From the NCBI GenBank assembly GCA_963717145.1, contig OY970325.1, positions 4,544,001-4,608,000 on the forward strand: a stretch of 64,000 nt of DNA, given 5' to 3'. The position numbers and the translations under genes were made by a program. The stretch is from an uncultured Armatimonadetes bacterium (lineage in GTDB: Bacteria; Armatimonadota; UBA5829; DTJY01). Below the pieces are notes generated by a model. The model was not told the origin of the DNA and did not search any database. It saw only the letters and a list, made by a program, of their open reading frames with translations. Positions 13,213 through 17,087 of the stretch are shown one piece after another. Positions within the stretch are counted from its first letter, which is position 1. Each line of letters begins with the position of its first letter.

Positions 13213-15757
13213 CTAGTACTTCGTGTCGAACACCGTCAGCGAGTAAGCCGGGACCTTGTAGGTGAGTACCATCGATGACGACACCTGAATGGTCGTCTTG
13301 CGCTTCAATGTTACCTTGTCCGCTGTCTCATTGTCCGCGTTCAGGGATGCTGCCGTCATCTCGTAGACAGCCACCAGCCTTTTCCACGTCCTGGGCAGGC
13401 TGATCTTCACGCTCTCGGCCTTCTCCGTCCGGTTGACCAGAATGAGCGACCCTTCCTGAGGACTAGCCCCGCCGAATCCGTAGGCGCATATCCCCCCATA
13501 TGTGCTCGTCGTCTCGAGCACATACTGCTTGCTGTGATCGTGGACCGCCTGGAACGCCCATCCGCTGGGCCTGAGACGCGGCTTGTCCGGTGGGCCAACG
13601 ATCAAGCAGAACGGATCGTAGTACGGGTAGTACGGCTGGTGGTATATCGCCGAATCCCACCCGGACCGGAGAATCTGACAGAGCCCTATCGCGGTCCGCA
13701 GCCCGCCTGCCAGGGTTCGGATCGGATCCGTAGGCGTACCTGTTGCGTTCCACTCCGTCAGGGCGATCCTCTTGTTCGGGAATCGCTGGCGCAGATCATT
13801 GAAGCGGTCGGTAAGGATATCGACTGTCCAGAGCATGGAAGTGGCTGGCGCGTATGTCTGTCCTGGGACCATGGTAGTGGAGATAGTCAGGCCGGGGTAG
13901 CTGTGCCACGCTATGCCATCGAACAGCGCAGGGTTCTGTTCTGTGACTTCCAGGAAATCCTTCGCGAATCCATCATTTCCGGATTCAACATACAACTCAG
14001 CGCCCGCGTCGGCAATGACAGGATAGAACGCCTGCATCGCCTCCAGATAGCCGCTCGGACTTACAGCGATGGACACGTAGGATTCGACAGGCGACTCCCC
14101 GGTGTAGCCACCGGATTGATGCGCGATCCGGATCCAATATAGCGCCTGATTGGAGAGGCTGTTGTCTCCGGAGATGTCAGCGATCGACGCTCGTGTCCAG
14201 TTCTCCAGGGCCGTGTCGTCCCACTCCATGAAGTTCCAGTCACCGGAACTGATCATATTGTGTGCGGACGCAGGGTACTCATTCGTGAACGGGCAATAAG
14301 GGACATCGCCGAATCGGACCCATTGCGCACCGTTCCAGTACTCCCAGCCCAACGCTTTGTCCCCGGAAACCTTTGCGCCGTTTGCCAGGACGTAAGCCAA
14401 TGCGTGGAAACGCCACCTTTCCCCGATATAGAGGTAATCGCCAGGCGCGAAATCGAGGCGGTAGTTGTAAACCGGATAGTAGTTGCCCAGATACTGCCAG
14501 TCGGCTGGGTTCAACTGCTTCAGGTACGTGTTGTTGCCGTTCCCGATCTGCACATACCCATTGGTGGCAGGACGATAGTACCAGCCCTCGGTCGCCGCCT
14601 TGTAGAGGCACACTTCGTTGCCGAGTTCATAGATAGTCCTCAGCCCGGTCTGCCCGCTGGGCCGGGGGTAGAGTTCGTTGAACTGGACGAGGCCTGCTGA
14701 TTCCTCGGGTCGCCAATCCGAACCCTTCTCGCCGAACATGTTGAGGACGCATACCATCAGGGGATCCGTTTGGCCCGCCATCGCAAAGAGCTGCTCGGGC
14801 ATGCTGGCGCCGGGCGGGTCCGCGGGCTCACGCTTGTACATGAGGTTGGGCCAATGGTGGTCCCAGTTGATATATGGCTGAAGGAACGCGCGCCCCGTGG
14901 CAAAGCCTACCTGCTTCACCAATGCGTTGACCTTGGGATAGTCGGTTGTCCACCCCCAGTTGTAGTTGCCCAGTTGACCGCCGAAGCAATCCGGATTCAC
15001 GAGCCGTTGAATGTTCGACTTCACGGTCACCGTGCGCGCCGGCTCCGTTCCGACCTCTGCGAAGGTCGTGCCGATTGCCACATCATCGAGAAGTATACTG
15101 CCAGTGAAGCGCGTTCCATCCCAACCGTATGGCATTCCGATAAGCAGTTCGTCTATCAGCCTGCTGTCGGTGTCGAAGTTGTTGGTGTATATGCAGACTC
15201 CATCAACCCATATCTTGAGGTAGCCCTGAGGGCCTTTGTTGATGCCGAGCACCAATCGCGACCACTTCTCCGGCCACCAGTAAGCCCCGGGATAGTGCTC
15301 GATCGCGGATGCCGTCATGTTCGTGATAAAGGTCATCTGCCGGGTGTCGATCAGTCTGACCTTCGCGTCAATCTGTCCGCCCGACATCAGCCGGACAAGG
15401 TCCATCTGCGACTGCATCCCGGAGACCGAAGTGAACTTCCGAGTGAAGCCGATGTAAAGGGTCCCGCTGCCCTGAAGTGAATGACCGCTTGATATAGGTG
15501 AGTCCGTAGCCTCCCGCAGACTTGGCGCAGAGACAGTTCCCATTGACTCCCGGTGTAAGTGATACCGTGCCGCCGCCGGCTTGCACATAGGACCAACCGG
15601 GATGCTTCGCCATGATGCCGTCGAGTGTAGACGCATCATCGAAGGTCAGGAGTTCGCCTCCTGCAGAGGCTCCGGCGATTGTCAGTAGCACGTATGTGAG
15701 CAGCGACAACTGTTGCCATATGCTGCGAGTTTTCAGTATGCTTCGATTATATTCCAT
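13213..15757 (-). CDS. secreted clan GH-A-like glycoside hydrolase (GH51/GH79-like, arabinofuranosidase-type C-terminal beta-sandwich); frameshift at ~15471
   Basis: Signal peptide in ORF 15368..15775 joins ORF 13213..15639 (YIKRSFTSG|SGTLYIG) if one G of GGG is removed; YELGNE and ALTEWN catalytic-like motifs; C-terminal VPAYSLTV; GGAGG before ATG 15757. Confidence 0.65.
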
Positions 15758-15889: not shown

Positions 15890-15918
15890 TTGACAGCAAG
15901 CGCATAAGAGGCTATAAT
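15890..15918 (+). promoter_or_regulatory. consensus sigma70 promoter of the ASCH gene
   Basis: TTGACA (15890-15895), N17, TATAAT (15913-15918). Confidence 0.85.
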
Positions 15919-15977
15919 TCCGTGTACATGTCGGTAGCTTAGCAGGCCGACAACGTCATTTTGAGGAGATCCGGCGC

Positions 15978-16325
15978 ATGTTTGCGATCAACTTCTATTC
16001 CGAAGCGTACGCCGATATGCTGAGGTCCGGCCGAAAGACCGCCACGATCCGTCTCGGCGATAAGAGCGATAAGTACCGATCCGGGCAGTTGGTCTGGGTG
16101 ACGGTCGGCAGGCGATATGGCGCCCGGCAGAAGATCTTCACTGCCATCATAGACAGCGTCATCGTGAAATCCGCCTCTGACCTCACTCCGCGTGAGATCG
16201 AGAAGGAGAGCCCCGAACTGCGCCGTGTCGAAGAAGTCATCAACCTTCTCGGCCGCATCTACGACCGTCCTGTGGCGGCCGACGACCCCGTCACGATCGT
16301 ACAGTTCTCCCGCGTCATGGAGTGA
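15978..16325 (+). CDS. ASCH domain-containing protein
   Basis: SGRKTATIR matches the ASCH GxKxxTxR signature; GAGGAG RBS; 115 aa. Confidence 0.85.
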   Translation: MFAINFYSEAYADMLRSGRKTATIRLGDKSDKYRSGQLVWVTVGRRYGARQKIFTAIIDSVIVKSASDLTPREIEKESPELRRVEEVINLLGRIYDRPVAADDPVTIVQFSRVME

Positions 16326-16403
16326 TCAGTCACTCGGTTTTCAGTCATCAGTCATCAGCTGTCAGTGGGAAGCTGCACTGATAACTGATGACTGACCACT
16401 GAA
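16326..16403. repeat. heptamer-based palindrome (TCAGTCA)n ... (TGACTGA)n
   Basis: tcagtcatcagtcatcagctgtcagtg ... cactgataactgatgactgaccactga. Confidence 0.7.
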
Positions 16404-16411
16404 GACTGCCC

Positions 16412-16451
16412 AAAAAGAAACCCCGTCGGCGGAGCGTTCCGTCCGACGGGG
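16412..16451 (-). terminator. Rho-independent terminator of a minus-strand transcript
   Basis: Minus strand CCCCGTCGGACGGAACGCTCCGCCGACGGGG followed by TTTCTTTTT; the U-tract is on the minus strand only. Confidence 0.8.
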
Positions 16452-16561
16452 CATCGGGAGGTTCAGGGGATCATCCGTATCCGGTGGCCTGGATCGGCAA
16501 CCCCCTGGATGGGACCATGTCCCTCTCGAAAAGGAGAAGAAGATGTTTGCGATCAGTTCTA
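16412..16561 (-). ncRNA. candidate ~150-nt sRNA complementary to the ASCH mRNA translation start
   Basis: Bounded by an ECF-like promoter and a minus-strand terminator, with no credible ORF; contains the complement of ATGTTTGCGATCA and AGGAGA of the ASCH gene. Confidence 0.55.
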
Positions 16562-16566
16562 CTTCT

Positions 16567-16594
16567 CATACGGCGAACAGTCCTCGGAAGTTCC
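16567..16594 (-). promoter_or_regulatory. ECF-sigma-like promoter
   Basis: Minus strand GGAACT (16594-16589), N16, CGTATG (16572-16567). Confidence 0.5.
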
Positions 16595-16600
16595 CGGCGG

Positions 16601-16629
16601 TTGACAAAAGGTCCTTGAGGTGGTATACT
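16601..16629 (+). promoter_or_regulatory. sigma70 promoter P1 upstream of the tRNA cluster
   Basis: TTGACA, N17, TATACT with TG extension. Confidence 0.8.
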
Positions 16630-16654
16630 GCGAGCGTGCGATAGGCCGAATCTG

Positions 16655-16678
16655 ACAGGTGGAGACACCTGTTTTTTT
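16655..16678 (+). terminator. intrinsic terminator between P1 and P2
   Basis: ACAGGTG-GAGA-CACCTGT followed by a T run. Confidence 0.65.
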
Positions 16679-16680
16679 GG

Positions 16681-16709
16681 TTGACACCAAGCTCGCAGCC
16701 TGATATACT
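16681..16709 (+). promoter_or_regulatory. sigma70 promoter P2 of the tRNA cluster
   Basis: TTGACA (16681-16686), N17, TATACT (16704-16709). Confidence 0.85.
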
Positions 16710-16817: not shown

Positions 16818-16829
16818 GGGAAGCACAGG

Positions 16830-16910
16830 GAAGTACAAAGTACCTGAGTACAAAGAACAAAGACTCTGTCGGCGAGGGCCGGCTCGTCTTTGTACTTTGT
16901 ACTTAGTACT
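16830..16910. repeat. heptamer palindrome (AAGTACA)n ... (TGTACTT)n in tRNA spacer
   Basis: aagtacaaagtacctgagtacaaag ... ctttgtactttgtacttagtact. Confidence 0.7.
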
Positions 16911-17000: not shown

Positions 17001-17087
17001 AAGTACAAAGATGGGAAGTACAGAGTACAAAGACAAACCGGCCCTCGGTCCGGGTCTTTGTACTTTGTACTTCCGTACTTTGTACTC
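17001..17087. repeat. heptamer palindrome (AAGTACA)n ... (TGTACTT)n in tRNA spacer
   Basis: aagtacaaag..aagtacagagtacaaagac ... gtctttgtactttgtacttccgtactttgtact. Confidence 0.7.

Follow-up and report, generated by a model that had tools for sequence, protein, structure and literature searches.

Between the gene for an ASCH-domain protein and a tRNA operon in an uncultured Armatimonadetes bacterium lies a gap that repeats the beginning of the ASCH gene, and the question raised by this locus is whether the gap encodes a small RNA (sRNA) and, if it does, what that RNA would regulate. The window, which is the whole stretch of DNA analyzed, spans 64,000 nucleotides (nt) of this genome (GenBank assembly GCA_963717145.1, contig OY970325.1, positions 4,544,001 to 4,608,000). 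An earlier reading made from the letters alone, here called the sequence-only reading, proposed a minus-strand RNA driven by an extracytoplasmic function (ECF) sigma factor and dedicated to covering the Shine-Dalgarno (SD) sequence and start codon of ASCH. Comparison with related genomes indicates that the RNA belongs to a family that is most likely real, previously undescribed, and of a known kind. The favored explanation, held with reasonable confidence, is that of a trans-acting ECF-type sRNA from a multi-copy, class-confined family that would pair through anti-SD motifs, with ASCH as a lineage-specific additional target. The window's genome is designated G000, that of its nearest genus G001, and further relatives carry codes of the same form.

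The elements described in the sequence-only reading are present in the window (Table 1). The minus strand carries an ECF-like promoter, GGAACT-N16-CGTATG, and a terminator whose T-run works only on that strand, at a site that a terminator scan also reports. The 13-nt sequence ATGTTTGCGATCA at 15978-15990 is repeated exactly and in direct orientation at 16543-16555, and the SD sequence AGGAGA of ASCH recurs inside AAAGGAGAAGAAG at 16530-16542. ASCH itself has a consensus sigma-70 promoter (12/12, 15890-15918). The predicted sRNA folds with -66.7 kcal/mol (z score -4.3, with 0 of 200 shuffles as stable), and the G001 copy has the same fold order (z -3.6), namely a free 17-nt 5′ end, a paired first anti-SD motif, a central hairpin, a free AACCUCCC, and the terminator. 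Nucleotides 1-17 are unpaired in both the minimum free energy and the centroid folds, and the CAU sits in a hairpin base.

Table 1. Features of the predicted sRNA locus in the window and PEP-CTERM genes of G000 with complementary start regions.
Feature	Position	Strand	Remarks
-35 box GGAACT	16589..16594	-	Sequence; GGAAC invariant in aligned family copies
-10 box CGTATG	16567..16572	-	17 nt past GGAAC; CGTA invariant in alignments A3 and A4
Predicted sRNA transcript, ~150 nt	16412..16562	-	5′ end inferred from promoter
5′ segment GUAGAACUGAUCGCAAACAU	16543..16562	-	Complement of ASCH codons 1-5, extending past a gap to codons 6-7
Anti-SD motif 1 and spacer complement, CUUCUUCUCCUUUUC	16528..16542	-	Conserved across family; TCTCCTT invariant in A3 and A4
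Central hairpin	16464..16507	-	Predicted fold; seen in long variants of the window's genome family; same layout in G001
Anti-SD motif 2, AACCUCCC	16456..16463	-	Predicted single-stranded immediately 5′ of terminator
Intrinsic terminator	16412..16451	-	Stem 16421-16429 / 16443-16451; U-run 16412-16420
ASCH translation start region	15964..15990	+	SD AGGAGA 15964-15969; first 13 coding nt 15978-15990; proposed lineage-specific target
ASCH gene, 115 amino acids	15978..16325	+	Pfam ASCH E 8e-8; convergent with sRNA gene
PEP-CTERM gene, start region AGGAGAAGAAGATG	G000:C1 4052283-4051315	-	
PEP-CTERM gene, start region AGGAGAAGAAGATG	G000:C1 4051249-4050251	-	
PEP-CTERM gene, start region AGGAGAAGAAGATG	G000:C1 4178598-4179269	+	

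Two candidate open reading frames (ORFs) in the gap, of 33 amino acids on the plus strand and 65 on the minus strand, were weighed as rivals to an RNA gene. The ASCH DNA of G001 is 80% identical to that of G000 and the downstream element about 70% identical, with the -35 and -10 boxes, AAAGGAGAAGAAGATG…TTCTACTTCT, ACCTCCCGATG, and the terminator hairpin with its A-run all kept, while the promoter spacer is conserved at only 7 of 16 bases. In G001 both candidate frames are broken by a 4-nt insertion straight after the ATG, and in a strain that is ~97-98% identical by the loss of 1 nt at 16546. Neither ORF matches Pfam. The small-protein reading of the gap was rejected and the earlier statement that it holds no credible ORF was upheld. 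A non-coding gene on the minus strand would be expected to keep its boxes while the spacer diverges and indels break the reading frames, and a minus-strand sRNA gene that has both an ECF-type promoter and a terminator of its own is very probable on this comparative evidence. The Rfam check called for in the sequence-only reading was run with all 4227 families and gave no match in 16410-16600 even at E ≤ 10.

The element is one of many. The search covered 401 Armatimonadota genomes, 53 of the window's class and 348 others, using the strict pattern GGAAC-N17/18-CGTA-N22-50-TCTCCTT with the reversed pattern as a control. Matches were found in 38 of the 53 class genomes (control, 4 of 53) and in 30 of the 348 genomes from the rest of the phylum, compared with ~21 for the control, and the matches outside the class are without the family's other sequence features. 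Judged by pattern and sequence features, the sRNA family is confined to one Armatimonadota class in the genomes searched. Many class genomes have two to four copies, several as tandem pairs, an arrangement seen in at least six genomes. When a hairpin of at most -8 kcal/mol and four or more T were required, 48 of 61 examined matches were followed by a hairpin and T-run; the other 13 mostly have a hairpin with an interrupted T-run, and the G003 match has neither and is not family-like. Two alignments, of nine family copies (A3) and of 25 compact copies (A4), were compared. Compact copies are without the central hairpin, and compensatory changes affect 8 of 10 terminator pairs in A4. A covariance model (R1) built from A4 with G000 and G001 excluded matches the 64-kilobase window only once, on the minus strand at 16528-16572 (21.5 bits, E 0.002); it spans the 5′ half only because the window copy is a long variant. 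R1 also recovers family members in genomes missed by the strict pattern. The window copy thus has the core CAUCUUCUUCUCCUUU after an ECF promoter, the second ACCUCC motif, an intrinsic terminator, and the R1 match.

Further copies lie elsewhere in G000. One is a long copy on the minus strand, its promoter and core spanning 3977087-3977159 with boxes GGAACT-N17-CGTATC, and another is compact (3796369-3796458, minus strand) with a GGAAA/CGTC variant promoter. A third family-like copy (4125781-4125858, minus strand; R1 23.3 bits) is preceded by TGGCAC-N5-TTGCA instead of GGAAC/CGTA, an arrangement that we take to resemble the sigma-54 promoter consensus.

Which sigma factor would drive these copies is suggested by the promoter. 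AAC in the -35 box and CGT in the -10 box are hallmarks of ECF promoters, and the window copy has GGAAC and CGT boxes ~16-17 nt apart. The GGAAC and CGTA boxes are invariant in all aligned copies (9 of 9 in A3 and 25 of 25 in A4). Among 35 Sigma70_r2 matches in G000, one sigma gene has GGAACTT-N16-CGTATT directly upstream and a zinc-binding anti-sigma (ZAS) gene next to it, and NCBIfam places this sigma nearest to SigE and SigW. A homolog at E ≤ 1e-30 is found in all 53 class genomes, and GGAAC-N17/18-CGTA stands 50-81 nt before the match start in 30 of 30 examined sigma/anti-sigma loci. Because the same motif precedes its own operon, the sigma factor is probably autoregulated through a motif common with the sRNA promoters, and we infer that transcription of the sRNA depends on this class-wide SigE/SigW-like sigma.

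The conserved part of the RNA is its pyrimidine-rich sequence. The core UCUCCUU is invariant in both alignments, and compact copies read …UUCUCCUUUC(A/U)CCUCCUUUCC… ahead of the terminator. They repeat CACCUCCUUUC, which equals 11 nt of the 16S rRNA 3′ tail; the 16S rRNA of G000 has GGATCACCTCCTTTCT at its 3′ end, which includes CACCUCCUUUC. ACCTCCCGA also precedes the terminator in G001, G004, G005, and G010. Many paralogs have, ahead of the core, CAUCUUCUU, the complement of an SD, spacer, and AUG, and this complement, CAUCUUCUUCUCCUU, is common to many paralogs that do not adjoin ASCH. With so many paralogs carrying the same complement, the match to the SD and AUG of ASCH is a general property of the family.

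What is specific to ASCH lies beyond the AUG. The duplex of the sRNA with its own ASCH start region is predicted at -33.9 kcal/mol in G000 and -27.4 in G001, against a G000 background mean of -17.6 (standard deviation 4.1) over 17551 SD-preceded starts, and by this crude duplex energy the ASCH start ranks seventh of 8431 G000 ORFs. Finding a 13-mer match at some place in the genome is no surprise, but an in-register match at the neighbor's start codon is a different matter, as the 10 matched bases past the AUG (codons 2-5) have a chance of ~4^-10 in that fixed register by our own arithmetic. With the anti-SD part excluded, the start region is still the strongest pairing site along the whole ASCH mRNA in G000 (z -4.5) and G001 (z -2.5), while the other 12 ASCH-adjacent copies range from -1.9 to +1.6 and give no consistent pairing site elsewhere on the ASCH mRNA. 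Seven non-adjacent copies in the window's genome family pair weakly with ASCH (-10 to -18 kcal/mol). The expectation that relatives would keep the complementarity between the sRNA seed and the ASCH 5′ end was therefore not borne out, as the specific match is present in only 2 of 14 adjacent copies. The loop of the G000 copy resembles those of G005 and G010, a few substitutions apart. This likeness, together with an SD-AUG spacer that is the family's and not that of ASCH, argues for evolved complementarity over a decayed duplication. ASCH is probably a target of the sRNA in G000 and G001, judging by this pairing, and on the same comparison ASCH silencing is not the family's conserved function.

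The favored explanation can be set out as a sequence of steps. The minus strand from ~16562 to 16412 would encode a trans-acting sRNA, one of a multi-copy family, made upon release of the stress sigma from its zinc-binding anti-sigma, since the promoter type GGAAC-N17-CGTA is that of the sigma's presumed autoregulated promoter. One or two pyrimidine-rich anti-SD motifs (UCUCCUUU and ACCUCC(C/U)) would pair with purine-rich ribosome-binding sites, and the most likely action would be to block translation initiation there. In G000 and the nearest genus the mostly unpaired 5′ segment appears to have gained complementarity to the ASCH start codon and codons 2-7, which would make ASCH a probable lineage-specific target.

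Candidate targets beyond ASCH were sought in G000. Sixteen non-self matches of at least 13 nt to the 38-nt 5′ domain of the sRNA were found in the genome. Three start regions have the sequence AGGAGAAGAAGATG, complementary to 14 nt of the sRNA core, and all three belong to genes for signal-peptide PEP-CTERM proteins (Table 1); 50 PEP-CTERM-like ORFs have a mean duplex of -21.8 versus -18.7 kcal/mol, figures that refer to self-called ORFs, many of them spurious. Many other PEP-CTERM genes of G000 also have purine-rich start regions. The 13-mer GGAGAAGAAGATG of the three start sites is found in G018, G023, G027, and G031 only within the sRNA gene and is absent from G008. PEP-CTERM genes as conserved targets did not generalize by exact match to four other genomes and are retained as a lead only.

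Several points weigh against the favored explanation. The evidence for the sRNA gene, its expression, and its targets is comparative and sequence-based only, and the target ranking is crude, using duplex energy alone, without accessibility, on self-called ORFs that include many spurious ones. Because GGAGAAGAAGATG is confined to the sRNA gene in four other genomes, a conserved target was not identified. A search of sequencing runs found no RNA run in which the locus is represented; two RNA runs share only 5-6% of words with it and are uninformative on expression, one (X19) aligning only at 16376-16412, within part of a repeat, with 90-95% likeness and the other (X20) nowhere. In the predicted fold of the window's long variant, the first anti-SD motif pairs internally with GAGAGGGA (16520-16527). 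One related strain has a 1-nt deletion and two transitions in the 13-mer with the ASCH start unchanged, although both transitions would, on our reading, still permit G·U pairs, and another strain has one pair-breaking change, again with the ASCH start unchanged. The compact G000 copy at 3796369-3796458 sits directly upstream of a same-strand membrane-protein ORF, so that some copies could act in cis. Finally, a 5′ stem of at least 5 base pairs (bp) is found in 35 of 48 compact copies, yet the mean of 5.33 bp compares with 4.89 bp in shuffles, which it barely exceeds because the arms are purine- and pyrimidine-rich. RNAalifold did not call this 5′ hairpin in the compact copies, and a conserved 5′ hairpin is not claimed for them, being near shuffle level.

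The neighboring protein gives the locus a second point of interest. It matches Pfam PF04266 with 33.3 bits (cut-off 21.2), and its AlphaFold model (predicted local distance difference test score 87.4) has E. coli YqfB as best Foldseek match (E 3e-6, template modeling score 0.64-0.72), with PH0355 and the single-strand RNase ZmASCH also found and ZmASCH lower in the list than YqfB. A search of the PDB by sequence gave no ASCH match at E ≤ 1. The NCBIfam N4-acetylcytidine amidohydrolase model gives only 20.8 bits against a threshold of 93, so this activity is not assigned.

Adjacency was taken to mean a convergent strict-pattern copy no more than ~210 nt downstream of ASCH. It is found in 15 of 47 ASCH-bearing class genomes from five families (2 of 10 in f1, 3 of 6 in f2, 6 of 6 in f3, 3 of 23 in f4, and 1 of 2 in f5), and the genes beyond the sRNA differ between these genomes. 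The convergent adjacency appears to be old, with a cis-antisense effect or an RNA-protein partnership as possible explanations. One form of partnership would be an ASCH-sRNA module kept across five families, likened to CcaF1 with the CcsR RNAs discussed below, in which ASCH binds, processes, or deacylates the anti-SD sRNAs or the mimicked 16S tail and the sRNA 5′ end feeds back on ASCH translation in the window's lineage; this is considered distinctly unlikely. All six class genomes without an ASCH match are also without a strict-pattern match. Co-occurrence of ASCH and sRNA was nevertheless dropped as a candidate, as R1 detects the family in ASCH-less G029 with 63 bits and gives weak matches in G002 and G039. 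One genus only (G020, G024, and G355) is without both an ASCH match and an sRNA match by pattern or R1, which may reflect joint loss in one lineage. The best ECF sigma match in these three genomes is 43-47% identical, compared with 54% or more in the other listed class genomes.

The alternative closest to the sequence-only reading, that the sRNA is a dedicated regulator that mainly silences the adjoining ASCH via its SD and start codon, is judged unlikely. The specific start match in G000 and G001 stood, and the perfect 13-nt match in start-codon register with its SD match, the start region as best site on the ASCH mRNA in both genomes, the predicted unpaired state of the complementary 5′ end, and the convergent arrangement in five families all speak for it. 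The SD and AUG part is family-generic, however, and is carried by copies away from ASCH; only 2 of 14 adjacent copies have the specific match, at least three further family copies lie in G000, close strains change the 13-mer while ASCH stays constant, and G006 has its tRNA operon directly after ASCH with no sRNA copy between. An effect in cis of the convergent layout, with ECF transcription colliding with or antisense-reading ASCH or with ASCH read-through antisense to the sRNA, would account for the terminator lying ~10-100 nt from the ASCH stop codon in all adjacent copies and for an adjacency that persists in five families despite different genes on the far side of the sRNA. On the plus strand the G000 hairpin is without a U-run, so that ASCH transcripts may run on, possibly to 16654-16680. 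Such an effect is very unlikely all the same, as the terminators are strong and covarying, predicting little read-through, and most family copies are not beside ASCH.

Still less likely is the idea that the RNAs, without action on mRNA, serve as decoys resembling the 16S 3′ tail and sequester a protein that recognizes it, possibly ASCH. It is suggested by the identity of CACCUCCUUUC in compact copies with part of the 16S 3′ end, by the fold that ASCH shares with YqfB and ZmASCH, and by the synteny, but the motifs of the window copy (UCUCCUUUU and AACCUCCC) have diverged from the exact tail, and known anti-SD-motif sRNAs act on mRNAs according to the introduction of PMC8034643. Barely credible is an origin without function, in which the ASCH 5′ end was partially duplicated and has decayed or was copied by gene conversion; the same holds for a small protein of 33 (plus strand) or 65 (minus strand) amino acids. 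That the repeat is direct, on the same strand at a distance of 565 nt, and that its second ATG follows a good SD would fit a duplication, whereas the SD-AUG spacer of the second copy is the complement of the family's CUUCUU and not the ASCH spacer, promoter and terminator are conserved, copies far from ASCH carry the same core, and the loop is only a few substitutions from those of G005 and G010. For a small protein, both frames are broken (the 4-nt indel of G001 and the 1-nt deletion of the close strain) and have no Pfam match.

The surroundings of the locus hold further features. An imperfect palindrome at 16337-16406, directly 3′ of the ASCH stop codon and with 31-nt arms that are 84% complementary, is one member of a repeat family; more copies lie elsewhere in G000, and G001 and G009 give weaker matches. 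Two related strains have 73-85 different letters in place of the palindrome (joints 16323/16327→16411), which looks like a repetitive extragenic palindromic (REP)-like or mobile hairpin element. On the plus strand, a near-consensus sigma-70 promoter, TTGACA-17-TATACT, at 16601-16629 is followed ~25 nt on by a plus-strand terminator at 16654-16680, just 5′ of the tRNA operon's own promoter (16681-16709). G006 has this promoter too, along with an identical terminator hairpin. The segment 16601-16680 could be the source of a ~45-65 nt transcript or a terminator for ASCH read-through. The spacers of the tRNA Val-Asp-Phe-Thr operon (16829-16906 and 17001-17087) contain long inverted repeats of GTACAAAG-like units, for which Rfam gives only spurious microRNA-like matches. 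Upstream of ASCH, an 808-amino-acid ORF at 13213-15639 on the minus strand has no Pfam match at E ≤ 0.1.

The predicted sRNA can be placed among several known systems. The sequence-only reading had likened its layout to type I antitoxins, and the likeness is that of a nearby-encoded RNA complementary to a neighbor's SD and start codon. The targets of type I systems are small, usually hydrophobic toxins, whereas here a conserved enzyme-like ASCH protein of 115 amino acids with a YqfB-like fold, not a small toxic peptide, would be paired at 2 of 14 loci, and the analogy fails. Certain C/U-rich motifs act as anti-SD sequences in suhB/mmgR (RF00519) and the Betaproteobacteria toxic sRNA (RF02278), and the present family has C/U-rich motifs as well. 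All scores are nevertheless below gathering thresholds, with paralogs in other genomes reaching 25.9 bits against a gathering score of 41 for RF00519 and 23.2 bits against 50 for RF02278. No Rfam family is matched at its gathering threshold by the window copy or by the paralogs, and the window copy has no RF00519 or RF02278 match even at E ≤ 10.

MicA, RybB, and MicL of Enterobacteria are sigma-E-driven, terminator-ended sRNAs whose free 5′ end pairs at translation start regions. A layout of this kind, with an ECF-type promoter, is predicted here, in a different phylum and with no sequence or structure homology (no Rfam match), and the only hint of envelope targets like those of sigma-E sRNAs is the three PEP-CTERM start sites of G000 that match over 14 nt. 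Of the known kinds, the CcsR or "cuckoo" RNAs with CcaF1 come closest, with the sigma-E-dependent sRNAs next. The CcsR RNAs (αr14 family, including NfeR1) of Alphaproteobacteria occur with the small RNA-binding protein CcaF1, as described in PMC8034643. That paper also gives the likenesses, which are several, often tandem homologous copies, anti-SD motifs, a stress sigma promoter, and a conserved neighborhood with a small protein gene (PMC8034643). It further places CCUCCUCCC in hairpin loops and names the sigma factors RpoHI/RpoHII (PMC8034643), whereas here UCUCCUUU and ACCUCC lie in linear stretches and each copy has an ECF-type promoter and a terminator. The cuckoo motif CCUCCUCCC is absent from the window sRNA, whose motifs are UCUCCUUUU and AACCUCCC, the latter predicted outside any hairpin. 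ASCH is convergent with the sRNA and not co-transcribed with it, unlike the CcsR/CcaF1 arrangement. The sequence-only reading knew of no described case, which holds for this family, with no Rfam match, but not for the kind of RNA, which is already known.

A literature search judged by titles and abstract beginnings found no sRNA described for Armatimonadota, and among the listed papers that name Fimbriimonas, Fimbriimonadia, or Chthonomonas, none contains "sRNA" or "non-coding RNA". A family with a conserved ECF promoter would offer a first handle on post-transcriptional stress regulation in Armatimonadota and would serve as a ready-made marker of the ECF sigma's regulon. It would also be another independent case of stress-sigma sRNAs built on anti-SD motifs, here copying the 16S tail, and its old synteny with a YqfB-like ASCH protein provides a lead to the function of a widespread, poorly understood protein family.

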